Positions 1 through 35,961 of a stretch of 64,000 nt of DNA are shown here, piece after piece. The stretch spans positions 224,001-288,000 of the forward strand of contig JBEKIW010000002.1 in assembly GCA_050011565.1 (NCBI GenBank), read 5' to 3'. How positions within the stretch are numbered: position 1 is the stretch's first letter; each line of letters opens with the position of its first letter. The notes under the pieces are model-generated. The model saw only the letters and a list, made by a program, of their open reading frames with translations, made no database searches and was not told the DNA's origin. The stretch is from Dehalococcoidia bacterium (GTDB lineage Bacteria; Chloroflexota; Dehalococcoidia; GIF9; UBA5629). Made by a program: the position numbers and the translations under genes.

Positions 1-179
1 CCGAGGTGGAAATCGGCGGTGTAAGACGTCGCGTCAGTATAGTACTCACTCCGGAAGCCAAGGTCGGTGACTACGTCCTGCTCCACACCGGCTACGCCAT
101 AAACGTCGTCAATGAAGCTGAAGCGCAAGAGACCCTGAAGATCTTAGAAGAGATGGCAAGTTTAGATGAAGTTCATTGA
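1..179 (+). CDS. hypC: Hydrogenase maturation chaperone HypC (5'-partial)
   Basis: Own translation from nt 3: EVEIGGVRRRVSIVLTPEAKVGDYVLLHTGYAINVV...; VGDYVLxHxGYA motif; overlaps the hypD start. Confidence 0.92.
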   Translation, partial: EVEIGGVRRRVSIVLTPEAKVGDYVLLHTGYAINVVNEAEAQETLKILEEMASLDEVH

Positions 180-1251
180 CGAATTCCGTGATGTCGAGCT
201 GGCAAAAAAGCTGGTAAACAGGATAAAACAGCTATCGACCAGACCGACCAGATTGATGGAGTTCTGCGGCGGCCATACCGTTTCCATCATGAGGAGCGGT
301 CTACGCCAGCTACTGCCGCCCACCGTCGAAATGCTCTCCGGCCCGGGCTGCCCGGTATGCGTTACGGCCAATGCCGACATCGACAAGTCTATTGCTCTGG
401 CCAGTCTGCCGGATGTCATCATCACTACCTTCGGCGATATGATGAAAGTGCCCGGCAGCTACTCCAGCCTGCAGCAAGCCAGAGCCACAGAAGCGGATAT
501 ACGCATCGTATATTCCACTCAGGACGCGCTACAAATCGCCAGAGACAACCCGACGCAGTCCGTCATCTTTATCGGCATCGGCTTCGAGACCACTGCCCCG
601 ACCATTGCCGCTTCTATACTTCAGGCGGAAAATGAAGGAATCAAAAACTACTATGTCCTTTGCCTGTCCAAACTGTGCCCGCCGATAATGAAAGCTCTGC
701 TTGATTTGGGTGAGCTCAAGCTGGACGGCATAATCTGTCCCGGACATGTCAGCGTTATAATCGGCTCCCGCCCTTATGAATTCATACCCCGCGAATACGG
801 CGTTGCCTGCGTCGTCTCCGGCTTCGAGCCGCTGGACATACTGCTCTCAGTAGAGATGCTGGTAGAGCAAATCGAAAGCGGCAAGCCAAAGGTGGAGATA
901 GCCTATCGACGTGGTGTAAAGCCTGAAGGTAACAAAACGGCATTGGAGTTGATGGATCGCGTTTTTGAAGTTGACAGCGCCGACTGGCGGGGCATAGGTG
1001 TGGTGCCGGCCAGCGGGTTAAAGATAAGGAAAAAATTCGAGCGCTTCGATGCCGAGCAAGCTTTCTCAATAACCCTGGAGCCCGTCCGAGAGGCAAAGGG
1101 ATGTATCTGCGGCGATATACTGCGCGGCGTAAAGATACCAATCGACTGCAAGCTATTCCGCAAGGCCTGTACACCGGAACACCCGGTCGGGCCCTGCATG
1201 GTATCTTCCGAAGGTTCCTGCGCCGCTTATTATCAATATGAAACTGTTTAG
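166..1251 (+). CDS. hypD: Hydrogenase formation protein HypD
   Basis: MEFCGGHT, GPGCPVC, GFETT, PGHVS, GPCMVSSEGSC motifs. Confidence 0.97.
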   Translation: MKFIDEFRDVELAKKLVNRIKQLSTRPTRLMEFCGGHTVSIMRSGLRQLLPPTVEMLSGPGCPVCVTANADIDKSIALASLPDVIITTFGDMMKVPGSYSSLQQARATEADIRIVYSTQDALQIARDNPTQSVIFIGIGFETTAPTIAASILQAENEGIKNYYVLCLSKLCPPIMKALLDLGELKLDGIICPGHVSVIIGSRPYEFIPREYGVACVVSGFEPLDILLSVEMLVEQIESGKPKVEIAYRRGVKPEGNKTALELMDRVFEVDSADWRGIGVVPASGLKIRKKFERFDAEQAFSITLEPVREAKGCICGDILRGVKIPIDCKLFRKACTPEHPVGPCMVSSEGSCAAYYQYETV

Positions 1252-1254
1252 CAA

Positions 1255-1299
1255 CCTCACCCCCTTAATCTCCCCCTCCTTTGTAAGGAGAGGGAGAAG
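1255..1299. repeat. REP-like palindrome, family 1 (CCCTCACC...CTCTCCC-loop-GGGAGAG type)
   Basis: cctcacccccttaa followed by hairpin tctccccctcctt-tgt-aaggagagggaga; related copies at 39831, 49617, 52251. Confidence 0.6.
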
Positions 1300-1350
1300 A
1301 GTGGACTGGACCTGTCCATACATGTCTTAGTATCAATACGGGACTGAATA

Positions 1351-2358
1351 ATGAATGATGAAACCATCTTGCTGGCCCACGGCAGCGGCAGCCGGCTAAG
1401 TCACGACCTGATTGAGAAAAATTTCCTGCCGCCGCTAACTAATCCGCTATTAGCCAGGCTGGATGATTCGGCGGTTTTCGACCTCAGCGGTCGCCTCGCC
1501 TTCACCACCGACAGCTACGTGGTCAGCCCTATCTTCTTCCCCGGCGGCGATATCGGCAAGCTGGCTGTCTGCGGTACCGTCAACGACTTATCTATGAGCG
1601 GAGCTGCGCCGCTTTACTTGAGCCTGTCCTTCATAATAGAAGAAGGCTTAACAATTGGCAAACTGAAAAAGGTGGTCGGTTCCATAAAAGCAGCGGCTGA
1701 AGAAGCCGGCGTAAATATAGTCACCGGCGATACCAAGGTGGTAAACCGCGGCAGCGCCGATAAGCTGTTCATCAACACCTCCGGCATCGGCATCATCCCT
1801 GAAGGCGTAGATATATCCGGGGCTAATGCCAAATTGGGAGATAAAATTATCCTCAGCGGCACCATCGGCGACCACGGCATTGCCGTGATGAGCCAGCGAG
1901 AAGGGCTCAAGTTCTCAGTGCCCGTCCAAAGCGATTGCGCCCCGCTTAACAAACTGGTGTCGCAGATGCTTGAAGCCTCGCGACGTATTCACTGCCTGCG
2001 TGACCCAACCCGAGGCGGCTTAGCCACGACGCTTAATGAATTCGCCAGGCAGTCTGGAGTCGGCATCAGGATAGAAGAGGAGAAGATTCCGGTGCTCGAT
2101 GCTGTTCGAGCCGCCTGCGAGCTTCTCGGTTTCGACCCGCTGTATGTGGCCAATGAAGGCAAGCTCGTGGCTATAGTGGCGCCAAACGATGCTGGGAAAA
2201 TTCTGGCCAGGATGAAGCGGAATAAGTATGGCGCCGACGCTGCCGTCATCGGCGAGGTAACCGATGAGCATAAAGGCAAGGTCATATTGAAGACGCGGCT
2301 TGGTGCCTCCCGCATCGTCGACATGTTAAGCGGCGAACTGCTGCCCCGCATTTGCTAA
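1351..2358 (+). CDS. hypE: Hydrogenase maturation carbamoyl dehydratase HypE
   Basis: HGSG, FTTDSYVV, GTVND, RDPTRGG, C-terminal PRIC. Confidence 0.97.
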   Translation: MNDETILLAHGSGSRLSHDLIEKNFLPPLTNPLLARLDDSAVFDLSGRLAFTTDSYVVSPIFFPGGDIGKLAVCGTVNDLSMSGAAPLYLSLSFIIEEGLTIGKLKKVVGSIKAAAEEAGVNIVTGDTKVVNRGSADKLFINTSGIGIIPEGVDISGANAKLGDKIILSGTIGDHGIAVMSQREGLKFSVPVQSDCAPLNKLVSQMLEASRRIHCLRDPTRGGLATTLNEFARQSGVGIRIEEEKIPVLDAVRAACELLGFDPLYVANEGKLVAIVAPNDAGKILARMKRNKYGADAAVIGEVTDEHKGKVILKTRLGASRIVDMLSGELLPRIC

Positions 2359-2690: not shown

Positions 2691-4781
2691 TCACACGCTC
2701 TTCTGCGCTTTAGTGCCAGTCTTGGTAGCGGCGGCGCCGTAGAATCTATACATATCCCGACCCTGCTCCTTAGCCCGGTACATGGCGGTGTCGGCATTCT
2801 TCAATAAGATTTCAATATCCTTTCCATCCTCAGGGTAAACAGCAATGCCGATGCTGGTCGTAATATTGAGCTGGTGACCATCGAAAACAAGTGGCTCTCG
2901 AAAGACATCCAAGATTCTTTGGGCTAACCTGGAAGCATTGGCCGGCTGGCAGACTTGTGGTAGCACCAAAACGAACTCGTCTCCACCGATACGGGCAATC
3001 GTATCGCTCTTACGAGTAACACTTGTCAATCGCTCGGCAACGGCTTTCAGCAACTGGTCACCGACACCATGTCCCAGAGTATCATTAATAGTCTTAAATT
3101 TATCCAAATCGAGCATCAATACAGCCAATCTGTTACCACTGCGCCGTGATAGAGCCAATCCCATGGTAAGACGGTCGCTCAACAATGTTCTGTTAGGCAG
3201 GCCGGTCAGCGAGTCATGTGTGGCCATTTCAGCAATCTTTTGCTCGTACTGCTTATGTTCGGTAACGTCACGGCTGACCGCCCGGAATCCGACAATCTTC
3301 CCCGCCTTGTCCCGCAAAGGAGAAACCGAATTTTCTACGAACATCTGCGTTCCGTCCTTTCTAACGGTGGCAAAAGGATATGATTTCAGCGGCTCGCCTG
3401 TCCGATAGACTTTATTCCAGGCCTTATATACGCTCTTTAAATCCTCTTTGAGCACGTAAGCTCGATAGTTCGTTCCGATTAACTCTTCCTCGGAGTATCC
3501 GAATTGACGACAAGCTGATTTATTGACAAAATTGATATTACCGGCTAGGTCCAGCTCATAGTAGCCTTCCTCTATCTCCTCCAGTATGGATCGATATTTC
3601 TCCTCCGACTGTCTTAAAGCTTCCTCCATCCGCACACGCTCGGTAACATCATGGCTGACTCCACGAAAACCGACTATCTCGCCTTTCTCGTTTCGCATGG
3701 GGAAAGCCGATATTTCAGCGAATCCATGGCTACCGTCTTTTCTAACGAAAGTGGAACTAATGGCTTTGATTGGCTGACCGGTACGGTAAAGCTTCTTATA
3801 CTCTTCATAAATTTTTTGGGATTCTTCAGGCGTGTGGATGGCTCTGGAGTTCATACCTATCAGCTCTTCCATGGTATATCCCAAGCTGCGGCATAAAGCA
3901 TCGTTTACGAAGGTGTAGTTGCCGGCCAGGTCGTTTTCATAGTAATCATCGTGTATCTCATCCATTATGGTGCGGTATCGCTCCTCGGACTTTCTTAAAG
4001 CTTCCTCCATCTGCACACGTTCGGTAACATCATGGCTGACTCCACGAAAGCCTACTATCTCACCTTTCTCGTTTCGCATGGGGAAAGCCGATAGTTCACC
4101 AACTCCGTAACTGCCATCTTTGCGAACGAATTTGGTGGTAAGGGCTTTGATTGGCTGACCTGTACGATAAACCTGGTTAAAGGTCTTATAAATTCTTTCG
4201 ACATCATCACTGGCGTTGGTGACCTTATAGTTCATACCTATCAGCTCTTCCGCGGTATATGCCACGCTACGGCAGAAGGCATCATTTACGAAGGTGTAAT
4301 TGCCAGCCAGGTCAACTTCAAAATAATCATCATGCGTCTCGTCCATGATAGTCCGGTATCTCTCCTCTGACTTGGCTAAGGTCTCTTCCGACTGCTTGCG
4401 TTCGGTGATATCCATAAAGCTTCCCACGGCGGACCGCTTTCCACTATACTCAGTTGAGGTCAACCTCTCCAGAACCCAAATTACCCCGCCGTCCTTTTTT
4501 AGGAATCTGTACTCATAGGGAAAGGAACTTCCACCCTTTAAGCTGTCTATTGCCTTTTTCCTGACTATTTCTCTATCCTCGGGATGAACCAGGTCGAGAG
4601 GATACACACCTAGAAGTTCCGGTTCTGTATAGCCCGTTAGCTCCTGGAATAGTGAGTTAACATACTGAAATCTTCCGTCCTGGATAATATAAATCCCTGT
4701 GCCGGCACACCGCATTAACGCTTGCGCCAGCTCTTCAGAGCCATTCATCCTGGATTTGTTTTGTTTAACCGTCTTTTCCAC
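2691..4781 (-). CDS. Diguanylate cyclase with four PAS/PAC domains
   Basis: Four PAS-PAC repeats (DITE/DVTE ends); HDSLTGLPNR, DLDKFKTINDTLGH, RKSD I-site, GGDEF. Confidence 0.95.
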   Translation of the reverse strand: MEKTVKQNKSRMNGSEELAQALMRCAGTGIYIIQDGRFQYVNSLFQELTGYTEPELLGVYPLDLVHPEDREIVRKKAIDSLKGGSSFPYEYRFLKKDGGVIWVLERLTSTEYSGKRSAVGSFMDITERKQSEETLAKSEERYRTIMDETHDDYFEVDLAGNYTFVNDAFCRSVAYTAEELIGMNYKVTNASDDVERIYKTFNQVYRTGQPIKALTTKFVRKDGSYGVGELSAFPMRNEKGEIVGFRGVSHDVTERVQMEEALRKSEERYRTIMDEIHDDYYENDLAGNYTFVNDALCRSLGYTMEELIGMNSRAIHTPEESQKIYEEYKKLYRTGQPIKAISSTFVRKDGSHGFAEISAFPMRNEKGEIVGFRGVSHDVTERVRMEEALRQSEEKYRSILEEIEEGYYELDLAGNINFVNKSACRQFGYSEEELIGTNYRAYVLKEDLKSVYKAWNKVYRTGEPLKSYPFATVRKDGTQMFVENSVSPLRDKAGKIVGFRAVSRDVTEHKQYEQKIAEMATHDSLTGLPNRTLLSDRLTMGLALSRRSGNRLAVLMLDLDKFKTINDTLGHGVGDQLLKAVAERLTSVTRKSDTIARIGGDEFVLVLPQVCQPANASRLAQRILDVFREPLVFDGHQLNITTSIGIAVYPEDGKDIEILLKNADTAMYRAKEQGRDMYRFYGAAATKTGTKAQKSV
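3613..4370. repeat. Internal tandem duplication (381-bp period) of a PAS-PAC unit
   Basis: Near-identical DNA beginning cttaaagcttcctccat at 3613 and at 3994. Confidence 0.85.
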
Positions 4782-4979
4782 TTACGTTATCTCAACAATC
4801 TTTCCATAACTTATCGCTAGATACACTTAATATAGTATATCGCCTACCAGAGCTATAAGTGAATAGCCTATAGGTAATTTTATGTCTAGTAAAAAGGTAC
4901 TACCGACTAAGCTCTGGAGGTAGCCAAACCATAATTTGTATCGTGACTCTTGCAGTCATTTTTTAATCACTCGGCCTAT

Positions 4980-5008
4980 TTGCAATGATAGTTATAAACG
5001 TGTAGAAT
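4980..5008 (+). promoter_or_regulatory. Sigma70-type promoter of the hydrogenase-metVF operon
   Basis: TTGCAA-N17-TAGAAT; palindrome TGACT-N5-AGTCA at 4944-4958 upstream. Confidence 0.6.
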
Positions 5009-5045: not shown

Positions 5046-5942
5046 ATGCCTAAGGCAAACGTTCAAGAAATTCCGCTTGTCTGGATACAAGCAGGCACCT
5101 GCACCGGATGCTCAGTCTCAGTCCTCAATTCAGTCAGCCCGACCATCAAGAATGTCCTTATAGATGAAATTATCCCTGGTAAACACCTAAACCTGAAATT
5201 CCAGGCAACCGTAATGGCCGGCGAAGGGGACGCCGTAATTAAGGTGCTGGAAAATACGCCAAAGACAAATAAAGGTGGCTATGTCCTAATAGTCGAAGGC
5301 GCCATCCCCACCAAGGATGGCGGTGCTTATGGGTCACTTGGTGAGAAAAACGACAAACCGGTGCCCATGGCAGAGAGAGTAGAAGCATTAGCCAGGGATG
5401 CCCTGGCAATCGTGGCACTGGGCACCTGCGCTACCTTCGGCGGTATAGCTGCCGGCAAGCCTAATCCCGGTGGCTATGTGGGTGCGGAAAAATTCCTTAA
5501 ATCCCGCAATATAAACAAGCCGTTGATTAATATCGCCGGCTGTCCACCCCACCCCGATTGGTTCATAGGCAGCGTCGCCTCCGTACTGCTTCTCGGTTTG
5601 CCCAAGCCGGAAGACCTGGACGAGCTTAAACGTCCCAAGGTCTTCTATGGCAATTTAATCCACGAAAATTGCCCCAGAAGAGCCTACTTCGATGAAGGAA
5701 AATTTGCTAAAAAGTTCGGCGAACCGGGCTGCCTCAATGAGCTGGGCTGTAAGGGACCGGTTACGCATGCCGATTGCCCGCTGAGGAAGTGGAATCACGG
5801 AACAAACTGGTGCATCGATGCCGGTTCGCCGTGCATCGGCTGCTGTGAGCCCGGATTTCCCGATCTGGTGGCTCCCGTCTATCAGAAATTAAGCGATGCC
5901 AACATGCCCATGATAGGTAAACTCCCGGGAAAGGAGAAATAG
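5046..5942 (+). CDS. [NiFe]-hydrogenase small subunit (group 1/1a-like), no TAT signal, no membrane anchor
   Basis: CTGC, GTCATFGG, GCPPHP, HENCPRR, LGCKGP, WCIDAGSPCIGC; ATG 5046 after AAGGGGGT. Confidence 0.92.
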   Translation: MPKANVQEIPLVWIQAGTCTGCSVSVLNSVSPTIKNVLIDEIIPGKHLNLKFQATVMAGEGDAVIKVLENTPKTNKGGYVLIVEGAIPTKDGGAYGSLGEKNDKPVPMAERVEALARDALAIVALGTCATFGGIAAGKPNPGGYVGAEKFLKSRNINKPLINIAGCPPHPDWFIGSVASVLLLGLPKPEDLDELKRPKVFYGNLIHENCPRRAYFDEGKFAKKFGEPGCLNELGCKGPVTHADCPLRKWNHGTNWCIDAGSPCIGCCEPGFPDLVAPVYQKLSDANMPMIGKLPGKEK

Positions 5943-5945
5943 AAA

Positions 5946-7505
5946 TTGAGCAAGATTGTTGTTGACCCGGTCACCCGCCTCGAAGGTCACTATAAGGTTG
6001 AAGTTGTCACCGATAAAGGCGTGGTCAAAGAAGCTCACAGTTCAGGCATGATGTTCCGTGGCCTCGAAATAATACTCCGGGGAAGAGACCCGCGCGATGC
6101 CCAAATGTATACACAGCGTATCTGTGGAGTCTGCCCTACCAGCCATTCCACGGCTGCCACGCTTAACCTCGACAGCGCTTTCGGTCTCGCCGATAAGATA
6201 CCCGACAACGGACGTATTATCCGTAACCTCATATTGGGAGCGGCGCATGTTTCCGACCACATTCTTCACTTCTATCACCTGGCAGCTCTCGATTACGTGG
6301 ATGTTACCAAGATACTCAAATACGAGGGCAATGACCCAAGTTTGAACTCTGTCAAGGAATTTGCCCAGCGAGGAGAGCTGGCTCCATTTGTACCTCGATA
6401 TGAAGGTGACTACCGCTTAAGCGATAAGGTGAATATAGGCGCACTGGCTCATTATATTCAAGCTCTGGAGATGAGACGCAAGGGTCAGGAGATGCTGGTT
6501 ATCTTCGGCGGCAAGATGCCTCATAATATGGCTATCGTCCCCGGCGGAGTTACTTCAACCGTCACCGTGGATAAAATAGCCTCTTTCCTGTGGATGCTCA
6601 ATGAGCTCAGGGATTTCGTCGATAATGTTTATATTCCCGACGTCCTGGCCGTGGCCGAAGCCTATGCCGACTATTTCGAAATCGGCGCCGGCTGCGGCAA
6701 TCTACTGTCTTACGGAAGCTTCGACCTCGAAGGTAATAATCCCGATTACACCAAGAGGAAGAGGCTTATGAAGCAGGGGACGGTTTCAACTGACCTTAAG
6801 CTCGGTGCTCTAGACCCGAACAAGATTATGGAATATGTAAAGCATTCCTGGTATGCCGATTCCAGCACCGGCAAGCACCCGTCAAAAGGCGCGACGGAGC
6901 CTCAACTGGAAAAGAAAGGCGCCTACACCTGGGTGAAAGCTCCGCGATACGACGGCAAGGTATATGAAGTCGGCCCGCTGGCCCGTATAGCAGCTAGTTA
7001 TGCCGACGGAGAGCCAACGGTTAAAACGCTGGTCGACTCTGTTCTTTCGAAGTTTAAGGCCAGCCCCAAGGCTTTATTCTCAGTGCTCGGTCGCCATGCC
7101 GCCCGTGCCCTCTATACCAAGTTTCTGGCTGATACAATGCCCGGGTGGCTGCTCCAGCTAAAGCCGGGTGAGCCGGCTTACATAGACTACACCATACCCG
7201 ACGAAGCCTTTGGAATGGGATTAGTTGATGGTGCCAGAGGTGCTCTGGGGCACTGGATTGAGATAAAGGATAAGAAAATTGCCAATTACCAGTGCGTGGT
7301 GCCAAGCACCTGGAATATGTCGCCGAAAGACGACAACGGACAGCCCGGACCGGTAGAACAAGCCCTTATCGGCACCAAGATAAAGGATGAAAATAATCCT
7401 TTTGAGATCGGTCGCATTATCCGCTCCTTCGACCCCTGTCTGGCTTGCGCCATTCATGTTATTACGCCCAAAGGAAAAACTCTTGGAATATACAAAGTCA
7501 GTTGA
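5946..7505 (+). CDS. [NiFe]-hydrogenase large subunit (group 1/1a-like)
   Basis: DPVTRLEGH, L1 RICGVCPTSH, L2 FDPCLACAIH plus cleavable C-terminal extension. Confidence 0.95.
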   Translation: MSKIVVDPVTRLEGHYKVEVVTDKGVVKEAHSSGMMFRGLEIILRGRDPRDAQMYTQRICGVCPTSHSTAATLNLDSAFGLADKIPDNGRIIRNLILGAAHVSDHILHFYHLAALDYVDVTKILKYEGNDPSLNSVKEFAQRGELAPFVPRYEGDYRLSDKVNIGALAHYIQALEMRRKGQEMLVIFGGKMPHNMAIVPGGVTSTVTVDKIASFLWMLNELRDFVDNVYIPDVLAVAEAYADYFEIGAGCGNLLSYGSFDLEGNNPDYTKRKRLMKQGTVSTDLKLGALDPNKIMEYVKHSWYADSSTGKHPSKGATEPQLEKKGAYTWVKAPRYDGKVYEVGPLARIAASYADGEPTVKTLVDSVLSKFKASPKALFSVLGRHAARALYTKFLADTMPGWLLQLKPGEPAYIDYTIPDEAFGMGLVDGARGALGHWIEIKDKKIANYQCVVPSTWNMSPKDDNGQPGPVEQALIGTKIKDENNPFEIGRIIRSFDPCLACAIHVITPKGKTLGIYKVS

Positions 7506-8001
7506 GACACGAACGCGTCATAGCAGCCCGAGAATCACCATTCTGGGCATCGGCAACCTGCTACTCAAAGACGAAGGTATAGGCGTCCACCTGGTTCAAA
7601 AACTGGCTGGCGTTGTAGACAACGCTAATGTCAATATAATCGACGCCGGCACTTATCCCGACTTTCTGTCTCTGGTAGATGACAATTTAGACAAATTAAT
7701 CATTGTAGACGCTGTTAAAACCGGAGATAGGCCGGGAACTATATATCGATTCGGCTCCGATGACCTAGATTTAGATTCCACGCTGCCGGTTTCGGCACAC
7801 GATATGGGCGTATTAGATAGTCTAAAAACGATGGCTTTACTCAATAGACAGCCAAAATCAACAGTCATTATCGGCATCGAGCCCAGGACCATAGACTTCG
7901 GGCTTGACCTTTCCCCGGAAATTGAAGATAAACTACCCAAAATTATTAGTTTAGTTCTCAAGGAGATAGAGGAAACCACAGCTATGGAGGTAGACAAATG
8001 A
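7456..8001 (+). CDS. Hydrogenase maturation protease (HyaD/HybD family); start uncertain
   Basis: LGIGNLLLKDEGIGV, IIVDAV, SAHD, GIEP motifs. Confidence 0.9.
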   Translation: MLLRPKEKLLEYTKSVETRTRHSSPRITILGIGNLLLKDEGIGVHLVQKLAGVVDNANVNIIDAGTYPDFLSLVDDNLDKLIIVDAVKTGDRPGTIYRFGSDDLDLDSTLPVSAHDMGVLDSLKTMALLNRQPKSTVIIGIEPRTIDFGLDLSPEIEDKLPKIISLVLKEIEETTAMEVDK

Positions 8002-8684
8002 TAATCTCTGAATTAAAGCCGCTTCCGGAAATCTTAGGTTATTTAGACAAGGACAAGAAAATCTTTATAGCCGGCTGCAAAGGTTGTGCCGAGGTCTGCC
8101 AGACGGGGGATGAGCCTCAGGTCCTCGACATGAAACAGAAACTGGAGCAAGAAGGCAAGACAGTCACCGGCCACTGCGTTGTCGATTTCCTGTGTGATAA
8201 AGCTCTAATCAAGACCAGGCTGTTTCCCCATGAGGATGAGATAGATGCTGCCGATTCTCTGCTGGTAATGACCTGCGGTATCGGAGTCCAGGCAACAGCG
8301 GCTGTGGTGAACAAACTGGTACATCCGGCGGCTAACACCATCAATGTCGGCGGTGCCGGTGGGACGTGGCGGGGCAGCGAGCGCTGCCGTGAATGCGGCG
8401 ACTGCGTGCTGGATTTAACCGGTGGCATTTGCCCCTTGACTGCCTGCACCAAATGGCTCGTCAACGGACCTTGCGGCGGTGCTAAAAATGGCAAGTGTGA
8501 GGTTGAACCCGATGTACGTGACTGCGGCTGGCACCTTATTTACGAAAGGCTGAAAAAATTGGGCCAGTTGGACAAAATGCGAACAATCATGCCGGTGGTC
8601 AAGAACTACAGCAAAATGCAACCGCCGAAGGCGCTAAGGTCCACCATAATGTGGGCGCTGGAGCAGCAAGAAACAAAAGTTTAG
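7998..8684 (+). CDS. metV: Methylene-THF reductase Fe-S/Zn subunit MetV
   Basis: GCKGCAEVC, CGIG, CRECGDC, GICPLTAC, NGPCGG, KCEV, CGW; directly upstream of metF. Confidence 0.88.
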   Translation: MIISELKPLPEILGYLDKDKKIFIAGCKGCAEVCQTGDEPQVLDMKQKLEQEGKTVTGHCVVDFLCDKALIKTRLFPHEDEIDAADSLLVMTCGIGVQATAAVVNKLVHPAANTINVGGAGGTWRGSERCRECGDCVLDLTGGICPLTACTKWLVNGPCGGAKNGKCEVEPDVRDCGWHLIYERLKKLGQLDKMRTIMPVVKNYSKMQPPKALRSTIMWALEQQETKV

Positions 8685-8710
8685 CTATCCTTAAAGGAGG
8701 TAAACAGAGA

Positions 8711-9577
8711 ATGAGTCTGCGTGAAAAACTTCAGAACGGCAAGTTTATAGTCACCGCTGAAATCGGCCCGGCTAAAGGTGTAGACATACACGAGTTCAAC
8801 GAGAATGCCGACTTGCTTAAAAGCAGAGTAGATGCGGTTAATTGTACCGACCAGCAGAGTGCTGTAATGAGATTGGGGTCACTTGCCGCCTGCTACCTGC
8901 TCAAACAAAAAGGCGTCGAGCCTGTGTTCCAGATGACCTGCCGGGACCGCAACCGCATCGCACTGCAGTCAGACTTACTTAGCGCTTACGTTATGGGTGT
9001 TGAAAATGTTCTGTGTCTTACCGGAGACTATGTCACCTTAGGAGACCATCCTGACGCCAAACCTGTCTTCGACCTCGATTCCGTTTCCTTACTGTATGCC
9101 GCCCGACAATTAGAACAGGGCAAAGACCTTGCCGGCAAGGAGCTAAAAGGCACACCTAAATTCTTCCTCGGCGCCTGCGTCACTCCCGGTGCCGACCCTG
9201 TGGAACCGCAGCTTATCAAAATGGAGAGAAAGGTAAAGGCCGGTGCCCAGTTCTTCCAGACCCAGGCCATCTACGAGCCAAAAACCTTCGAAGCCTTCAT
9301 GAAAGAAGCTAAGAAATTCGGCGTGCCGATTTTAGTCGGTATCGTGGTGCTAAGGTCAGCCGGTATGGCCAAATTTATGAATAAAAACGTTGCCGGCATA
9401 CATGTCCCCGATGAGCTTATCAACGAGATGGACAAAGCCGAGAACAAATTGCAGAAGGGCGTAGAGATAGCCGCCCGCTTAATCAATGAGATGAAGGGCA
9501 TGTGCCAGGGGGCTCATATCATGGCTATCGGCCTGGAATCGAAGGTGCCTGCAATTCTCGATGCCGCTAAGTTATAA
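8711..9577 (+). CDS. metF: Methylenetetrahydrofolate reductase MetF
   Basis: TAEIGP, QMTCRDRNRIALQSDLL, LCLTGD, GAQFFQTQ; SD AAGGAGGT. Confidence 0.93.
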   Translation: MSLREKLQNGKFIVTAEIGPAKGVDIHEFNENADLLKSRVDAVNCTDQQSAVMRLGSLAACYLLKQKGVEPVFQMTCRDRNRIALQSDLLSAYVMGVENVLCLTGDYVTLGDHPDAKPVFDLDSVSLLYAARQLEQGKDLAGKELKGTPKFFLGACVTPGADPVEPQLIKMERKVKAGAQFFQTQAIYEPKTFEAFMKEAKKFGVPILVGIVVLRSAGMAKFMNKNVAGIHVPDELINEMDKAENKLQKGVEIAARLINEMKGMCQGAHIMAIGLESKVPAILDAAKL

Positions 9578-9592
9578 AGTTAAGGGGCAGAT

Positions 9593-10369
9593 GTGCGCAT
9601 CGTTCGCTTTGTGGCCTGGGGGCGAGCTAAGTACGGTATATTAGCCCGCAACACCATACGCGGACTCCGCGGCAGCCCTTTCTCTCACTTTCAGTATCTA
9701 AATAGCCCATCTATATTTGACGGCAGCACTTACACGCTGGATAAGGTCAGATTGCTTCCCCCGTGCCTTCCCTCAAAGATTGTCTGCCTGGGATTGAATT
9801 ATCGCAGCCACATCGAGGAGATGAAACTGCCTATGCCGTCAGTGCCGCTCATCTTCCTTAAGCCCTCCACCGCAGTTATCGGCCCCGACGACAAAATCAT
9901 ACTGCCCCGCGGCTGGAAACGCATCGACTATGAAGGCGAGCTGGGTGTAGTTATCGGCAAAAAGGCAAAGGATGTTCCAGAAGGGGAAGCAAAGGAATAT
10001 GTGCTGGGCTACACTTGTTTTAACGATGTATCCGACCGACATGCCCAGGCGAATGATGGCCAGTGGACCAGAGCTAAAGGCTATGACACCTTCGCCCCAA
10101 TAGGTCCGTGGATAGAGACGGAGGCCGATCCGGACAATCTGAAACTTGAGACTTACCTTAACAGCGAGCTGCGCCAGTCAGCTTCTACCAGCGACCTGCT
10201 TTTCGGAATATCTACGCTTATTAATTTTATTTCCGGTATTATGACGCTGCTCCCCGGCGATGTCATTGCCACAGGCACGCCATCAGGCGTCAGCCCGCTA
10301 AAGCCGGGCGACATGGTTGAAGTCAGAATAGAAAACATCGGCACGCTGAAAAATTTTGTAGCCATCTAA
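9593..10369 (+). CDS. Fumarylacetoacetate hydrolase family protein
   Basis: KIVCLGLNY, FLKP, DYEGEL, NDVS, KGYDTF, PGDVIATGTP. Confidence 0.92.
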   Translation: MRIVRFVAWGRAKYGILARNTIRGLRGSPFSHFQYLNSPSIFDGSTYTLDKVRLLPPCLPSKIVCLGLNYRSHIEEMKLPMPSVPLIFLKPSTAVIGPDDKIILPRGWKRIDYEGELGVVIGKKAKDVPEGEAKEYVLGYTCFNDVSDRHAQANDGQWTRAKGYDTFAPIGPWIETEADPDNLKLETYLNSELRQSASTSDLLFGISTLINFISGIMTLLPGDVIATGTPSGVSPLKPGDMVEVRIENIGTLKNFVAI

Positions 10370-10457
10370 AAGTAACCAGTTCACGCTATGTTCTGCTCCA
10401 TGACACCTGATATACTTATCCTTTGGACGGCGAACCACAGATAGTCGGAGGTTGGAT

Positions 10458-11108
10458 ATGAACTTAACTTTAATTGAGGCGCTGACTATTGGAGATGCCT
10501 GGTTCCAGTGTCTGGAAAAGGCTCTGGTAGAAGGCAGGACATATCGTATACAGCAGGGCAGTTTCGAGGGTACACATCGGAAAGAAATACCTCTAGTCGC
10601 TATCATAATTCGCAACCCTGGCGTCAGACCATTGAGACCTGATGTACCCATGGGGGTGCCGGCACCTACGACGGATGAGGTCATCCACGACTATATGTCA
10701 TATTTGATGACCGGTGCCAAACAGGAGAATGAAGAGTACACCTATGGCGAGGACCTGGCGCCACAAATCGATGAGGTAATCAAGCGCTATAAGCGGGGAG
10801 TGGATACCAACCAGATGTGCATGACGATCGGCAACAGGAAAAGCATTAAGTTAAAAGACCCGCCGTGTTTAAGAGTGGTGGACACCCGCGTTCAGGACGG
10901 CCAGCTCAATTTCGTTCTTTACTTCAGGAGCTGGGATTTATGGGGTGGCTTCCCTACCAATATGGGCGGATTGCAAATGCTGAAAGAATATATGGCCGAG
11001 GAGATCGGTGTAAAAGATGGCTCCCTTATTGCCTTCAGTAAAGGGCTTCATTTATACGAGCATTGCTGGGACCTGGCCAAAATGGTACTGCATATGCCAC
11101 CGGAATGA
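10458..11108 (+). CDS. thyA: Thymidylate synthase, short archaeal-like ThyA
   Basis: YTYG, PPC (catalytic Cys), FRSWD, FPTN, HLY; SD GGAGGT. Confidence 0.8.
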   Translation: MNLTLIEALTIGDAWFQCLEKALVEGRTYRIQQGSFEGTHRKEIPLVAIIIRNPGVRPLRPDVPMGVPAPTTDEVIHDYMSYLMTGAKQENEEYTYGEDLAPQIDEVIKRYKRGVDTNQMCMTIGNRKSIKLKDPPCLRVVDTRVQDGQLNFVLYFRSWDLWGGFPTNMGGLQMLKEYMAEEIGVKDGSLIAFSKGLHLYEHCWDLAKMVLHMPPE

Positions 11109-11186: not shown

Positions 11187-11768
11187 ATGCCGGAAGGTCA
11201 TTTCGATACGAATAGGGCACCGATTCTCGACAGTGAAGAACGTATCAAAGAGCTGAGACCTTACCAACTCCTCAAGGACACGGCCGGAGTTACTTCCGGC
11301 ATGACCTGCATAGACCTCGGCTGCGGTACCGGAACTTTTTCCTTCCCTATGCTTCTCTGCGTCGGCAGTGAAGGTGTTGTCTATGCCATTGATGACAGTG
11401 CTGAAATGCTGGAGCATATTCGAGCCAAGAATCCGCCGCCAAATCTGATACTGGTTCATGGCGATGTCAGCCAAACGGGGCTTGATAATGAGATTGCCGA
11501 TTTTTGTCTTCTGGCTTTCATCATGCACGAAGTCGAACAGCCGGCTAATCTCCTGGCCGAGGTATTTCGCCTGCTTAAGCCTGAAGGCAGGCTTTTAGTA
11601 ATAGAGTGGAAAGCCGATTTAGATTCGCCAGGCCCTCCACAAAGTAGGCGTCTATACAGAGAAACCGTTGACCAGCTTTTCAAGCAGGCGGATTTACGCG
11701 ATTTCGAATACATCGACTGGTCCAAGAACCACTACGTGACAACGGGCAGCAAAATGAGAACCGATTAG
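11187..11768 (+). CDS. Class I SAM-dependent methyltransferase
   Basis: IDLGCGTG, YAIDDS, RLLKPEG. Confidence 0.88.
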   Translation: MPEGHFDTNRAPILDSEERIKELRPYQLLKDTAGVTSGMTCIDLGCGTGTFSFPMLLCVGSEGVVYAIDDSAEMLEHIRAKNPPPNLILVHGDVSQTGLDNEIADFCLLAFIMHEVEQPANLLAEVFRLLKPEGRLLVIEWKADLDSPGPPQSRRLYRETVDQLFKQADLRDFEYIDWSKNHYVTTGSKMRTD

Positions 11769-25286: not shown

Positions 25287-27188
25287 CTACTCGGGCTTCT
25301 TAGCGCCTGAGACCGGCACCAGGCTGAGTGGGGAGAGGCGGATGACGGCGTTGTATTCCGGCGGGCAGACGAGCTGGCAACTGCCACATTTGGTGCACTT
25401 GGTTTGGTCGATGACCTTTATACCCTTTTCATTGGTGACGATGGCTTTTACCGGACAGGATAATACGCAATGTTCACAGGCTCGCTCGCACTTTTCTGGA
25501 AGTATGTAATAGGCGATCAGCTCTTTGCACACCAGCGCCGGACACCGTTTCTCGATAATATGAGCTTCGTATTCATCACGGAAATAGCGAATTGTAGTCA
25601 GTGCCGGATTGGCAGCGGTTCTGCCCAGGCCGCACAGCGAACCACCCCTGATATCCTCCCCCAGCTCAACCAGCAAATCCATATACTCGGGCTTGCCTTT
25701 GCCGACGGTTATGTCTTCCAATATGTCCAGCATCTGCTTGGTGCCAATGCGGCAGGTGGAACATTTACCGCATGACTCCTTCTGCGTAAAGTCGAGGAAG
25801 AACTTGGCTGTATCAACCATGCAGTTGTCCTCGTCCATGGCAATCACACCGCCGGAGCCCATAATCGCTCCGGCTTTACGCAGTGAATCGAAATCCACCG
25901 GCGTCCGCAGCATGCTCTCCGGCAAACAGCCGCCGGAAGGTCCGCCGATTTGCACCGCCTTGAACTTTTTTCCGCTCCTCATGCCACCGCCGATATCGAA
26001 GATAAGCTCGTGCAGCGTCGTGCCCATGGCCACCTCTGCCAGGCCGGTGTTGACCATCTTCCCGGCCAGCGCAAACGCGGCTGTGCCCTTGCTCGCTTCA
26101 GTGCCAATGCCGGAAAACCAATCGGCGCCGCGAGCCAGTATCAGAGGAACGTAGGCATAGGTCTTGACGTTGTTAAGCACAGTAGGCTTGCCCCACAAGC
26201 CGGACTTCACCGAATGAGGTGGCCTGGCTCTGGGCATGCTCCGCCTGCCTTCGATAGCATACATCAGTGCGGTTGACTCGCCGGAGACGAAGGCGCCAGC
26301 ACCCTGGACTATCTCTATACCAAAGCTAAATCCGCTGCCCAAAATATCATCGCCCAGTAGTCCTAAATTCGCTGCCTGTTTCAAGGCGACCTCCAACCGC
26401 TCGATGGCCAGTGGATACTCAGCCCGGATATAGACGAAACCATCATGAGCACCGACGGCATAGGCGGCGATAATCATGCCTTCTATGACCTGCTGCGGGT
26501 CGCTCTCCAGTACCACCCGGTCCATAAAAGCCCCCGGGTCGCCTTCATCAGCATTACAGATAACATACTTTGTCCGGCCTGATGCCTGGCGGCACTGCTC
26601 CCATTTCCTGCCTGTGGGGAAACCGGCGCCACCACGACCCCTGAGACCCGATTTCTTTATCTCTTCAATTATGTCATCTGGCTTCATCTTCAGCGCTTTG
26701 ACCAGACTACCGTAGCCGCCATTGGCAATATAGTGATTTATATTCGCCGGGTCGATGTAACCGCAGTTACGCAGAAGCAGACGATATTCATGCTCAAATC
26801 TGGAAAGCTCAGGTATATAGACCGCTTTGTCCTCACCGCCGCCCAGCGTGCCCAGGGCCAGGTCGAGACAAGGGTCGTCGCCCACAACATAGCCTTCCAC
26901 AAGCGTAGGCACCACCTGAGGAGTTACGTTGTTGTAGCAAACGGTGAAGGAGCCCGGCTTGATTATTGTTACAAGCGGCTCAAACGAGCAAAGGCCGATG
27001 CAGCCGACCTCGGTCACCTTAACCCGGGCTTTTCTCTTCGCCAGCTCGTGGTTAAAGGCCTCGACTACGGGCAGTGCACCGGCAGCTCGCCCACACGTAG
27101 CCGTTCCAATGAGGATGTGTGGGACTTCACCGTGATAGTGGGAGTCCCAGTCCGCCTTGGCCTGCTTCTGAATCTCTTCAAAGGTCAT
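25287..27188 (-). CDS. NuoF/HydB-like flavin NAD(P)H-binding subunit with N-terminal thioredoxin-like and C-terminal 2x[4Fe-4S] domains
   Basis: SGLRGRGGAGFPTG, CNADEGDPGAFMDR, GGPSGG, SCGKCSTCR, LCGLG, two C-terminal ferredoxin motifs; alternative TTG start 27194. Confidence 0.93.
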   Translation of the reverse strand: MTFEEIQKQAKADWDSHYHGEVPHILIGTATCGRAAGALPVVEAFNHELAKRKARVKVTEVGCIGLCSFEPLVTIIKPGSFTVCYNNVTPQVVPTLVEGYVVGDDPCLDLALGTLGGGEDKAVYIPELSRFEHEYRLLLRNCGYIDPANINHYIANGGYGSLVKALKMKPDDIIEEIKKSGLRGRGGAGFPTGRKWEQCRQASGRTKYVICNADEGDPGAFMDRVVLESDPQQVIEGMIIAAYAVGAHDGFVYIRAEYPLAIERLEVALKQAANLGLLGDDILGSGFSFGIEIVQGAGAFVSGESTALMYAIEGRRSMPRARPPHSVKSGLWGKPTVLNNVKTYAYVPLILARGADWFSGIGTEASKGTAAFALAGKMVNTGLAEVAMGTTLHELIFDIGGGMRSGKKFKAVQIGGPSGGCLPESMLRTPVDFDSLRKAGAIMGSGGVIAMDEDNCMVDTAKFFLDFTQKESCGKCSTCRIGTKQMLDILEDITVGKGKPEYMDLLVELGEDIRGGSLCGLGRTAANPALTTIRYFRDEYEAHIIEKRCPALVCKELIAYYILPEKCERACEHCVLSCPVKAIVTNEKGIKVIDQTKCTKCGSCQLVCPPEYNAVIRLSPLSLVPVSGAKKPE

Positions 27189-27200
27189 CGCCAACCTCTT

Positions 27201-27280
27201 ATGTCACCCTGAGCGGAAGCGAAGGGTCTCTAGGCCCCTCACTCCGAGATTCTTCGTCGATTCTCTCCTCAGAATGACAT
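27201..27280. repeat. REP/MITE-like element, family 2 (TGTCA...GAG...GAGATT...CTC...TGACA)
   Basis: Terminal inverted repeats atgtca/tgacat; internal gcgaagggtctc/gagattcttcg; related copy at 59671. Confidence 0.72.
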
Positions 27281-27297
27281 TTAGGGTCATCACTTCC

Positions 27298-27786
27298 TTA
27301 CTGCTTTTCTGGCGGCTCCTGGCTTACTGGTTTAATTGTCACCAGCACTTCCTCGACCTTCGGAGGCGTCATCCTGGGATAGACGGAGTCGCTGACTACC
27401 ACGACCGGAGCCAGGGCACAGCAGCCGACGCAGGCTACTCTGTCCAGGCTGAACTCTTGGTCCGGCGTAATGCCACCTACCTGTATATCGAGCTCCCTGG
27501 ACATAGCCTCGAGTACCAGCCTGCCGCCGGCCAAATGACAGGCGGTGCCCATACAGACTTTTACGGGGTGCTTGCCCAGAGGTGTGAAGCGGAACAGATT
27601 ATAAAAAGTAGCGATGCCGTACACCGTGCTCTCCGGAATTTCCAGAAAGTCGGCGATGGCCAGCATCGCCTCTTTTGAAATATAGCCTAGCTTATGTTGA
27701 ACTTGCTGAAGAAGGGAGATTAAATGGCGTCTATCCTTCTTTCTTTTTATAAGGATGTCTGCCAGATCCTGGTTCAGTTCTGCCAC
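27298..27786 (-). CDS. NuoE/HydC-like [2Fe-2S] subunit
   Basis: VYGIATFY, VCMGTACH, ACVGCCALAP; start overlaps the acsC stop. Confidence 0.93.
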   Translation of the reverse strand: MAELNQDLADILIKRKKDRRHLISLLQQVQHKLGYISKEAMLAIADFLEIPESTVYGIATFYNLFRFTPLGKHPVKVCMGTACHLAGGRLVLEAMSRELDIQVGGITPDQEFSLDRVACVGCCALAPVVVVSDSVYPRMTPPKVEEVLVTIKPVSQEPPEKQ

Positions 27787-29141
27787 TTCTTCACGAGACC
27801 CGGTAGGTATGCTGGTATCTCGCTGGCTTCTCTAGGTCCAACGATGATTTCCCAGCCGGGCAAAGCCTCCTCCAGCTCTCCCTTAATCCGGGCTACTTTG
27901 CCTGGGATAACCAGTTTCCGGTGCTTTACCCTGTCTTCGATGCCCGATTTTTTAATGAACGGTCCGATGGAGTCACCGGAGAACTTCCCCGCCGCCCAGC
28001 CGGTGAGAACGCCAAGTCCTTCGGTGTCCTTGACGCAGAGCCATGACGAGACTTTGCTGCCTTCGATTTCCGAGGCCACAATAAAATAGGTCAACGCCCA
28101 GTTGCTGGTAATCAACACCGGTGATTGGTCGGTCGGCTCGCCTATCTCGTAAATCTTCTGCTCCACGGACATAGGTATGCGCGGGTCGGTATAGATATTT
28201 AGCCTCTGGACCAGCAACGGCAGCAATGAGTACTTGTCGAAGTCGGATAAGACGATAACGCCCGGATATTTAATCACAAACATAGCCGCCAGCAGGATTT
28301 GTCTGATTTCATCTTTGCCTATAAAACAGGGGAATCCGATGGTGGGATAACCCAGAGGTCTGAAGTTCTGTTTCAAGGCTGCGCGCCGAATAAGCGTTTG
28401 GTCCCTGATGGCTTCCTGCATATTTTTAGCGATCGGGTCTAGTACTATCTCATCCAGACCGGCTTCCTTCAGCTTGGTGGTCAACGGTATCAGCTCTTCT
28501 ACGCTGTTGCCCTTCACCACTACCGGCGTCGGCGAACTCTTAATTCCGGCAATTATTTTGTCAATGTTATCTTTGGTAACAGCATAGAGCAGCGGCTTTC
28601 TTTCACCGCATATCTTCTTAGCTGAAAGCAGAACGTCAACATCCTCCGACATTAACACCAGAGGCAAATCGGTGCCGGCACAGACTTTCTTAACCAGTGC
28701 CTCAAATTTAGCTTTATCGCCCGACTCAAAATGCAGCGCCAAAACGTTCGCCTTAAGAGTCAGTCCTACCCACGGGAACTGTAATTCTTGTATCTTCTTA
28801 AGCTTCTCGTCGACCTTAGCCTCAGGTTCTTTGTCTGAGATAAGCAGGGCGATGCCCGGCTGATGGATGAAGGTCTTCTCATGCCTGTAAACCACCTCCT
28901 CACCGCCGATCAAGAGGGCATTTTTGCCTGAGCCGATGGTTACCGGCTTGATAGGTGGCGCCAGGGCCTCTTCCAGTTCAGCCTTAACCTCTACTGCAAG
29001 GTAAGAACATTTATCCAGCGAAACGCCGCCGGAAGCCAGCTTCATGGCGAAGGCAAAACAGGTGGGGAAACCGCACTCACGGCAATTCTTCTTGCCTCCA
29101 TCCGGAAGCTTCTTTACAACATCAGTTCCTTTTAGCGCCAT
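27774..29141 (-). CDS. acsC: Corrinoid Fe-S protein large (gamma) subunit AcsC/CdhE
   Basis: NCRECGFPTCFAFA, GGEEVVYRHEK, IYTDP, TSNWALTYF, VLTGWAAGKF. Confidence 0.96.
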   Translation of the reverse strand: MALKGTDVVKKLPDGGKKNCRECGFPTCFAFAMKLASGGVSLDKCSYLAVEVKAELEEALAPPIKPVTIGSGKNALLIGGEEVVYRHEKTFIHQPGIALLISDKEPEAKVDEKLKKIQELQFPWVGLTLKANVLALHFESGDKAKFEALVKKVCAGTDLPLVLMSEDVDVLLSAKKICGERKPLLYAVTKDNIDKIIAGIKSSPTPVVVKGNSVEELIPLTTKLKEAGLDEIVLDPIAKNMQEAIRDQTLIRRAALKQNFRPLGYPTIGFPCFIGKDEIRQILLAAMFVIKYPGVIVLSDFDKYSLLPLLVQRLNIYTDPRIPMSVEQKIYEIGEPTDQSPVLITSNWALTYFIVASEIEGSKVSSWLCVKDTEGLGVLTGWAAGKFSGDSIGPFIKKSGIEDRVKHRKLVIPGKVARIKGELEEALPGWEIIVGPREASEIPAYLPGLVKKWQN

Positions 29142-29161
29142 TGAAATCCTCCTAGCTCATT

Positions 29162-30388: not shown

Positions 30389-30392
30389 TCTA

Positions 30393-30947: not shown

Positions 30948-30963
30948 AACATAACCTCCTTGC

Positions 30964-31659: not shown

Positions 31660-31680
31660 GAATCCTCTTTTTAAATCTCC

Positions 31681-33987: not shown

Positions 33988-34055
33988 TATTAGTTCCTCC
34001 TTCTAACAGGCTGTGATAGACGGAATTATAGTACTATTAGGAATAATTATCAATA

Positions 34056-34961: not shown

Positions 34962-34983
34962 CGTTCGCTCCTTTTAATTACTT

Positions 34984-35862: not shown

Positions 35863-35903
35863 AATTTGCCCCCCCTTTTGTGAATTAGGTCTAAAACCGC
35901 ATA

Positions 35904-35961
35904 ATTGTAGCATTTCACTATTTGAGCGTCAACAGCATTTGTACCTAATCAAGTAAGGTAC
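35904..35961 (-). promoter_or_regulatory. Promoter of the acs/cdh operon with upstream palindrome
   Basis: Minus strand TTGACG-N17-TACAAT with extended TG; GTACCT-N9-AGGTAC at 35941-35961. Confidence 0.6.

Follow-up and report, generated by a model that had tools for sequence, protein, structure and literature searches.

A leaderless [NiFe]-hydrogenase of group 1 ancestry encoded with MetV and MetF in Dehalococcoidia: a candidate H2-dependent methylene-tetrahydrofolate reductase

We analysed a stretch of 64,000 nucleotides (hereafter the window) of contig JBEKIW010000002.1, from a Dehalococcoidia bacterium of the phylum Chloroflexota. Positions 5046 to 9577 of this window encode a [NiFe]-hydrogenase followed by MetV and MetF, the two subunits of a methylene-tetrahydrofolate (methylene-THF) reductase. 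An earlier note, made from the sequence alone, had suggested that this hydrogenase may exchange electrons directly with MetVF. The five genes and the putative promoter ahead of them are the following.

4979..5008, + strand: sigma-70-like promoter match, TTTGCA/TTGCAA and TAGAAT with a 17-18 nt spacer, 38 nt before the small-subunit start; a consensus match only
5046..5942, + strand: [NiFe]-hydrogenase small subunit, ATG start, 298 amino acids (aa), Pfam Oxidored_q6 and NiFe_hyd_SSU_C
5946..7505, + strand: [NiFe]-hydrogenase large subunit, TTG start, 519 aa, PF00374 at 549 bits and NF033181 at 722 bits
7483..8001, + strand: hydrogenase maturation endopeptidase (HycI/HybD family), in an open reading frame (ORF) open from 7387
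7998..8684, + strand: MetV, Fe-S subunit of a MetVF-type methylene-THF reductase, 228 aa, PF12225 at 105.8 bits, above the cut-off
8711..9577, + strand: MetF, catalytic flavoprotein subunit of methylene-THF reductase, 288 aa from ATG 8711, PF02219 at 124.9 bits, above the cut-off

NF033181 is an NCBIfam equivalog with a cut-off of 600 bits, which the large subunit exceeds. All five genes have the same orientation and are translationally coupled or nearly so, the junction coordinates confirming the overlaps or gaps of at most 26 nt described in the earlier note. The large subunit starts 3 nt past the small-subunit stop, with the ribosome-binding site GGAAAGGAG ahead of it. The protease probably starts at TTG 7483, after the ribosome-binding-site-like AAGGAAA, which would give a 23-nt overlap with the large subunit. 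The start of metV overlaps the protease stop as ATGA, and the start of metF, whose ORF is open from GTG 8651, sits at ATG 8711, 26 nt past metV and behind AAGGAGG. The earlier note also placed the operon behind one promoter. The sigma-70-like match is present and a motif scan found no + strand terminator-like site from 5046 to 11031; a single promoter is plausible from the sequence, at site counts, given below, that are no higher than in shuffled sequence.

By sequence comparison, the hydrogenase is closest to the periplasmic group 1a enzymes, yet leaderless and anchorless. The best PDB match of the large subunit is the [NiFeSe]-hydrogenase of D. vulgaris (5jsu_B, 456.7 bits), that of the small subunit the enzyme of Desulfomicrobium baculatum (1cc1_S, 251 bits), in agreement with the group-1-type assignment made earlier. 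The top 51 PDB matches of the large subunit are all group 1 enzymes, and group 3 large subunits (Mvh/Vhu, 3c) align only to its residues 1-118. Alignment to 5jsu_B places the Ni-Fe motifs RICGVC and DPCLACAIH, with cysteine and not selenocysteine. Beyond the His, the large subunit carries a 15-residue C-terminal extension, which explains the presence of a protease in the operon. No in-frame stop that could encode selenocysteine was detected in the large-subunit orthologues of 107 loci, and the curated NiFeSe models scored below their cut-offs. The in-frame stops that did occur within tblastn hits were discarded as selenocysteine candidates, being either true gene ends or parts of broken fumarylacetoacetate-hydrolase (FAH)-family or ThyA-like genes.

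The small subunit has no twin-arginine translocation (Tat) leader: no RRxF motif is present, at most seven extra codons are available upstream (from TTG 5025), and there is no room for a leader because the first cluster cysteine is residue 19. Curated Tat-bearing models align to it only from model positions 37-47. Its C-terminus is a short polar tail with no hydrophobic anchor, and no cytochrome b/c3 or membrane subunit was found among the window neighbours or the conserved neighbours of the 80 related loci described below. All of the linked small subunits (i.e. those encoded with MetV) with a readable N-terminus start 5-12 residues ahead of the first cluster motif (71 of 71). As a positive control for leader detection, a 46%-identical paralogue in a relative (L027) displays a classic SRRDFLKY leader, and the relatives L111-L113 and L115, described below, also have one. 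In an alignment of 68 small subunits, the cluster ligands C19, C22, C128, C166, C209, C229, C235, C244, C263 and C266 are invariant, while H206 is kept in 67 sequences and C256 in 62. From the alignment to 1cc1_S and the general arrangement of group 1 small subunits, C19, C22, C128 and C166 would bind the proximal cluster, C244, C256, C263 and C266 the medial cluster, and H206, C209, C229 and C235 the distal cluster. Both the four-Cys medial site and the His-ligated distal site are thus conserved, as is a tail motif, (L/M)P-x-I-G, in the linked clade.

We searched 1.84 billion representative proteins with this small subunit, and 321 matched at E 1e-30 or better. P0001 (58% identity) is the only full-length representative whose alignment starts at residue 1. 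Among the top 150 representatives, 82 have their first Cys motif beyond residue 30, and 72 of these 82 bear an RRxF-type motif. In a quick-search tree of 103 rows, including 14 of 67 linked sequences, the linked small subunits and P0001 form one clade nested among Tat-type sequences, with an SH-aLRT support of 90, below the 95 mark. The Thermodesulfobacteriota- and Actinomycetota-labelled linked small subunits are interleaved with the Chloroflexota ones.

We then investigated whether the association of the hydrogenase with MetVF is conserved, a check that the earlier note had proposed. From 41 related genomes, 25 encode an orthologue of the large subunit, and the gene order is kept across five families of the order. 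Among 27 loci from related genomes, 20 present the small subunit, large subunit, protease and MetV in order, 18 of them with a MetF match inside the 1.5-kb flank. Contig ends truncate five more; of the last two, one shows a run of N where a small subunit is expected, and the other is the Tat-bearing paralogue (46% identity), which lacks MetV in the approximately 1 kb of flank that remains. The run of N (L033, in the same genome as L007) replaces the small-subunit gene by about 100 N in an otherwise closed chromosome of a metagenome-assembled genome (MAG); it is an assembly gap or a masked stretch, and this locus is therefore uninformative on the small subunit. MetV of the linked type (at least 55% identity) was found only in genomes with the hydrogenase orthologue, while other MetV paralogues, at 35-46% identity, are widespread among the 41 relatives.

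To broaden the comparison, we screened contigs from one genome per species and retained the best 80 of 318 relatives (69-97% identity), all of them from MAGs. MetV directly follows the hydrogenase in 77 of these 80 loci, the contigs of the other three ending 2-85 nt past the large subunit. MetF follows in 71 loci, and 8 further loci are cut; in 63, a protease gene separates the large subunit from MetV. The loci are labelled Chloroflexota/Dehalococcoidia, Desulfobacteraceae, Syntrophobacteraceae, Syntrophaceae, 'delta proteobacterium', Thermodesulfobacteriota and Actinomycetota, i.e. the linkage of MetV extends over three phylum labels. When the 1093 neighbouring ORFs were grouped into 399 clusters, only five families were present in most loci: the large subunit (80), the small subunit (76), MetV, MetF and the protease. 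No third redox partner is therefore conserved. The next most frequent families are response regulators and histidine kinases (22 of 80 loci each), HypE (19), HypD (18), the FAH family (16), HypF (10), HdrA-like proteins (9), NuoE, NuoF and CooC-like proteins (8 each) and CdhD (7).

The linkage has a sharp boundary. The large subunit matches at E 1e-200 or better in 15 of 401 sampled genomes of the phylum. In another family of the class, a relative with 58-61% large-subunit identity occurs in 9 of 9 genomes, all of 1.4-1.9 Mb and 8 of 9 in a single contig. We inspected three relatives from that family and a 63% one from a 5.9-Mb genome (L111, L112, L113 and L115; other Chloroflexota, 57-63% large-subunit identity). 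Their small subunits have both a TRRDF or TRRHF leader and a hydrophobic anchor at the C-terminus, and neither MetV nor MetF is encoded near these four hydrogenases. Conversely, a 72% relative (L114) has a leaderless small subunit followed by MetV and MetF. Export and anchor have therefore been lost together, along with the gain of MetVF.

Eleven cysteines of MetV are invariant in 68 of 68 orthologues (C27, C30, C66, C130, C133, C136, C145, C150, C159, C167 and C176), and C93 is kept in 59. No sequence relative of MetV was found by a PDB profile search. Searched against the PDB, its AlphaFold2 model (predicted local distance difference test, pLDDT, 80.5) matches no structure at E 0.001 or better and retrieves only generic alpha/beta folds. 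The complex of small subunit and MetV, another check proposed in the earlier note, was predicted as two chains, each given as its own 68-row alignment, in three runs with three controls. It scored 0.73, 0.73 and 0.74, against 0.00 for the best control. In the calibration, 58 of the 80 solved complexes reached that mark, as did 2 of the 110 mismatched pairs, although these counts hold only roughly for own alignments. At least 94% of contacts are common to the three runs, and the partner pLDDT is at least 84. Since MetV has no PDB relative, it is improbable that the prediction reproduces a known structure.

The predicted interface comprises residues 193-194, 204, 207, 238-239, 268-270, 274-275 and the tail 282-294 of the small subunit, of which 204, 207 and 238-239 flank the distal-cluster ligands H206, C209 and C235. 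On the side of MetV, it comprises residues 60, 63, 67-79, 82-83, 102-106 and 187-189, beside the invariant C66. MetV is therefore predicted to dock at the distal Fe-S cluster and the C-terminal tail of the small subunit, the site where periplasmic relatives pass electrons to their acceptors. Three single features are suggestive: D63 of MetV is present in 68 of 68 linked copies but in 11% of the 18 unlinked ones, 11-13 of these 18 lack a 4-residue insertion at 69-72, and I290 and G291 of the small-subunit tail stand out as features of the linked clade. Separately, residues 30-47 of the small subunit hold 10 of its 40 positions conserved only in the MetV-linked clade, around a 6-residue insertion, PGKHLN, which is missing from 1cc1_S; this patch lies outside the predicted MetV interface. 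We also considered the N-terminal domain of MetV as an MvhD-like adaptor and dropped this idea: hhalign gave a probability of 1% (E 0.052), and residues 1-111 retrieved nothing from Pfam below E 0.01.

We observed the gene content, the missing leader and anchor, the linkage and co-occurrence kept among relatives, the conservation of the cluster ligands and a predicted complex that outscores its controls. On this basis, the five genes probably encode a soluble cytoplasmic H2:methylene-THF oxidoreductase, in which a hydrogenase derived from group 1 would act as the electron-input module of MetVF. The physical complex, its activity, the direction from H2 to methylene-THF and the absence of a second acceptor are what we infer from these observations. 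The large subunit, matured by the protease, would split H2 at its Ni-Fe site, and the electrons would run through the three Fe-S clusters of the small subunit. They would exit at the distal cluster, where MetV would be docked and partly held by the short C-terminal tail, and cross the Fe-S clusters of MetV to the flavin of MetF. MetF would then reduce 5,10-methylene-THF to 5-methyl-THF for the CO dehydrogenase/acetyl-CoA synthase (CODH/ACS) encoded 18 kb downstream. The hydrogenase heterodimer would thus take the place that ferredoxin, RnfC2 or HdrABC-MvhD has as the input module of other MetVF enzymes. Classification, conservation and predicted binding together support the direct exchange of electrons put forward in the earlier note. 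With E0' values of -414 mV for H+/H2 and -200 mV for methylene-/methyl-THF, as given in the accessible parts of PMC8760232 and PMC9586279, the calculated energy of H2-driven methylene-THF reduction is about -41 kJ/mol under standard conditions and about -13 to -18 kJ/mol at 1-10 Pa H2. The reaction being exergonic even at 1-10 Pa H2, the reductive direction is favoured.

The portions of PMC8760232 available to us distinguish four types of methylene-THF reductase: MetF alone, MetVF, MetVF-RnfC2 and MetVF-HdrABC-MvhD, with hydrogenase subunits in none of them, which agrees with the list of partners given in the earlier note. The second type is found in Clostridium ljungdahlii, Thermoanaerobacter kivui and Eubacterium callanderi (PMC8760232, same portions). 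Our locus resembles it in its adjacent metV and metF, a Cys-rich Fe-S MetV and a flavin-binding TIM-barrel MetF with no NAD(P)H site. Unlike type II, metVF is here preceded by hydrogenase genes, MetV is predicted to sit on the small subunit, and the proposed donor is H2, not reduced ferredoxin. With types III (Acetobacterium woodii) and IV (Moorella thermoacetica, Sporomusa ovata), it shares a MetVF core with an electron-input module encoded next to it, but this module is a [NiFe]-hydrogenase heterodimer instead of the NADH-oxidising RnfC2 or the Hdr/MvhD set. An rnfC2-like NADH-binding gene, the mark of type III, is absent from the window neighbours, and hdrABC and mvhD clustered with metVF, the mark of type IV, are absent from the locus. 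More generally, no cytochrome b, Hdr, Mvh or RnfC gene is annotated adjacent to the operon, as the earlier note had stated, although Hdr and Mvh genes are present elsewhere in the genome. H2-dependent methylene-THF reduction does occur in S. ovata, where the accessible part of PMC9430772 attributes it to periplasmic hydrogenases, quinone and the type IV enzyme; in contrast to this quinone/membrane route, a direct soluble complex is proposed here.

On the hydrogenase side, the periplasmic group 1a enzymes (5jsu, 1cc1) and the Tat-exported, anchored relatives of Dehalococcoidia share with the present enzyme the Ni-Fe Cys motifs, the four-Cys medial site, the distal cluster with its His ligand and a C-terminal extension for which a dedicated protease is encoded. 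The present enzyme stands apart in lacking a Tat leader, an anchor and an encoded cytochrome or membrane partner, in having cysteine and not selenocysteine, and in the PGKHLN insertion and conserved short C-terminal tail of its small subunit. The MvhAGD-HdrABC complex of methanogens (5odc) also associates a cytoplasmic [NiFe]-hydrogenase with a partner reductase through an Fe-S adaptor, as we propose for MetV; however, its hydrogenase belongs to another group, the N-terminal domain of MetV has no significant likeness to MvhD, and no HdrA flavoprotein is involved here. In the hydrogen-dependent CO2 reductase of A. woodii and T. kivui, an [FeFe]-hydrogenase is paired with a formate dehydrogenase. 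The concept is the same, a hydrogenase wired by Fe-S subunits to a reductase of the Wood-Ljungdahl pathway without soluble carriers, but the two systems have no homologous subunits in common. The pairing had been presented as uncharacterised, and full-text literature searches, with supplements and subscription journals outside their scope, indeed found no paper describing a hydrogenase-MetVF unit; nor does one appear in the accessible parts of PMC5736913, PMC9586279, PMC9430772, PMC10689502 and PMC8760232. The novelty lies in the proposed input module of the MetVF reductase and in a group 1 hydrogenase lineage that has become cytoplasmic. Our best reading is that hydrogenase-MetVF constitutes a fifth type of MetVF reductase.

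If this is true, a soluble enzyme would let H2 directly drive one step of the Wood-Ljungdahl pathway. A conserved operon wiring a hydrogenase to MetVF would offer a concrete and directly testable fifth solution for this step, parallel in concept to the hydrogen-dependent CO2 reductase, and would help to explain the use of trace H2 by abundant uncultured Dehalococcoidia and other sediment anaerobes. It would also mean that an exported respiratory group 1 lineage has been re-used as a cytoplasmic module, which matters for hydrogenase classification schemes that infer function from group. Moreover, a soluble H2:methylene-THF oxidoreductase could find a use in H2-driven C1 biocatalysis.

We then considered the genome (2.0 Mb in 8 contigs, 99.2% complete). 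It encodes one MetV and one MetF, where most relatives have two to four MetV paralogues, and one formyltetrahydrofolate synthetase; the RnfD/NqrB family has no match. An archaeal-type CODH/ACS with an AcsE-like pterin protein lies at 27.8-35.9 kb of the window, beside NuoE/NuoF-like genes. The other hydrogenases of the genome are all of the cytoplasmic group 3 type. Contig C1 carries an HdrCBA-HdrBC-HdrA-MvhDGA cluster, and contig C6 a GltD-like-MvhDGA set and a group 3 hydrogenase linked to NuoF/NuoG-like genes. The five FlpD/MvhD matches of the genome are located on C1, on C6 and, at least 60 kb away, on C2, with none at the operon.

Several observations weigh against a dedicated H2-driven reductase. 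A direct use of H2 without energy conservation would squander the 214 mV drop of this step, from which other acetogens are believed to save energy. The predicted interface shows no enrichment of positions that are conserved in the linked clade alone, neither in MetV (4 of 25 vs. 21 of 203 others, P = 0.29) nor in the small subunit (4 of 22 vs. 36 of 276, P = 0.34). One locus (L052) possesses MetV and no MetF despite 2.7 kb of room. Promoter-like sites number 11, as compared with 7.9 ± 2.9 in shuffles, and neither promoter nor terminator counts are above chance. The Hdr/Mvh complexes encoded elsewhere in the genome are possible alternative partners of MetVF in trans. Finally, an AMP-forming acetyl-CoA synthetase beside the Cdh genes and the presence of the cluster in syntroph-labelled MAGs fit an oxidative or assimilatory use equally well.

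Among the alternatives, the one that survives best, unlikely as we judge it, retains the same four-subunit complex and makes it a flavin-based bifurcating or confurcating enzyme. Two H2 would then reduce methylene-THF (downhill) together with ferredoxin (uphill) or, in reverse, methyl-THF and reduced ferredoxin would yield H2; the step would be reversible and energy-saving, in parallel with MvhAGD-HdrABC. This would remove the energetic waste of the 214 mV drop and bring the oxidation of methyl-THF within reach of the syntroph-labelled lineages with the cluster. Hdr-free acetogens and syntrophs could in that case conserve the energy of the methylene-THF step or overcome the barrier of methyl-THF oxidation. 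The eleven invariant cysteines of MetV exceed the need of two [4Fe-4S] clusters, so that a branch point or a ferredoxin site could exist. As far as the available portions of PMC8760232 go, MetF carries a flavin (flavin mononucleotide in C. ljungdahlii) and bifurcation by MetVF is a long-standing hypothesis, but none was seen with purified type II MetVF and the donors tested. Nor is any HdrA-, NuoF- or EtfAB-like flavoprotein conserved with the cluster, the HdrA-like, NuoE and NuoF families being confined to 9, 8 and 8 of the 80 loci, and no ferredoxin-binding site can be identified from the sequence.

It is rather improbable that the complex is real and works physiologically in the oxidative direction, from methyl-THF to methylene-THF with the electrons leaving as H2. 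The methyl-THF could come from the cleavage of acetyl-CoA by CODH/ACS after activation of acetate, for instance, and the reaction would supply C1 units or take part in syntrophic oxidation of acetate or methyl groups at very low H2. Besides the acetyl-CoA synthetase and the Syntrophobacteraceae- and Syntrophaceae-labelled MAGs already mentioned, a gene of the methylene-THF-using ThyA-like family 0.9 kb downstream of metF would suit this direction. The [NiFeSe]-type relatives of this enzyme are good H2 producers, but its group 1 relatives act in H2 uptake in vivo. The calculated energetics are also unfavourable, since the reaction would be about 41 kJ/mol uphill under standard conditions and still about 13 kJ/mol uphill at 1 Pa H2, unless methyl-THF were in about 170-fold excess over methylene-THF.

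Least likely of the three is that no complex forms, the genes being merely co-regulated while the hydrogenase reduces a diffusible carrier (such as ferredoxin) for MetVF, or MetVF docks to Hdr/Mvh: reduced ferredoxin does serve type II MetVF in vitro (PMC8760232, accessible part), Hdr/Mvh sets exist elsewhere in the genome, beside the cluster some loci carry an additional MetVF pair that comes with a fused HdrA/MvhD-like protein or with NuoEFG-like genes, and the tests of interface specificity were negative, but H2 at -414 mV is a poor reductant for a low-potential ferredoxin without bifurcation, the order is kept across phyla with translational coupling, the linked MetV clade strictly co-occurs with this hydrogenase clade, and the predicted complex, located where electrons were expected to exit, scores above its controls.

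Around the operon, the following genes and regions were identified in the window, with a divergent gene upstream and FAH-family, ThyA-like and methyltransferase genes downstream.

166..2358, + strand: hydrogenase maturation genes upstream of the operon, hypD (166-1251) and a hypE-like gene (1351-2358)
2691..4781, - strand: PAS-GGDEF protein, 696 aa, four PAS domains and a GGDEF diguanylate cyclase domain
9593..10369, + strand: FAH-family gene, starting 15 nt past metF
10452..11108, + strand: ThyA-like protein, 218 aa, TIGR03283 (archaeal-type thymidylate synthase) at 104.7 bits, below the 174.55-bit cut-off
11187..11768: methyltransferase gene, after the ThyA-like gene
25287..35913, - strand, and 37898..39820, + strand: CODH/ACS region, with a CdhA-like protein of 768 aa, a CdhB-like protein, CdhC, two CdhD-family proteins, an AcsE-like protein and DUF166

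The PAS-GGDEF gene lies between the operon and hypDE, divergent from the operon, and may encode a local regulator. With only 15 nt between metF and the FAH-family gene, the operon may extend further; this gene is probably co-transcribed with metF but lies outside the conserved core (16 of 80 related loci, mostly in the closest relatives). The ThyA-like gene is kept only in the closest relatives (L028, L029 and L035); methylene-THF, the substrate of MetF, is also used by the thymidylate synthase family. One MAG has the cluster twice, on separate contigs: on one of them the FAH-family gene downstream of metF is riddled with stops (L038:10801-11178), and on the other the ThyA-like gene has one in-frame TAG (L028:6589-7239). 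In the CODH/ACS cluster, the NuoE- and NuoF-like genes come after the Cdh genes, and a radical SAM gene and the AMP-forming acetyl-CoA synthetase gene adjoin it.

Some of the 80 loci present additional genes within or beside metVF. A gene of about 1.2 kb between metV and metF was considered as a third redox subunit and rejected, as it encodes a cyclic nucleoside monophosphate (cNMP)-binding histidine kinase and not a redox protein. Such a cNMP-binding HisKA-HATPase gene lies inside metV-metF in many of the 22 kinase-associated loci (L064, L066, L068, L072, L076, etc.; e.g. L066:9762-10916), and GAF-histidine kinases lie between the second copies of metV and metF in L051 and L059. A sensor kinase inside the operon of a two-subunit enzyme is unusual. 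The second metVF set of L051 includes a 698-aa protein in which an HdrA-like FAD/Fe-S part is fused to an MvhD (FlpD) domain and a MetV domain (L051:9032-11128), and that of L059, beside the linked one, is accompanied by NuoG/NuoE/NuoF-like genes (L059:10657-13040). In Syntrophobacteraceae-labelled MAGs, the second metVF set comes with a large HdrA-like protein; L076:30-3389 is a further locus with a second set.

Finally, a search of the genome with PF13486 (reductive dehalogenase) gave no match, though its control also matched nowhere. Outside the window, an FlpD/MvhD-domain match in the Hdr/Mvh cluster of contig C1 (C1:336343-336711) contains one in-frame TGA, which may be a selenocysteine codon.

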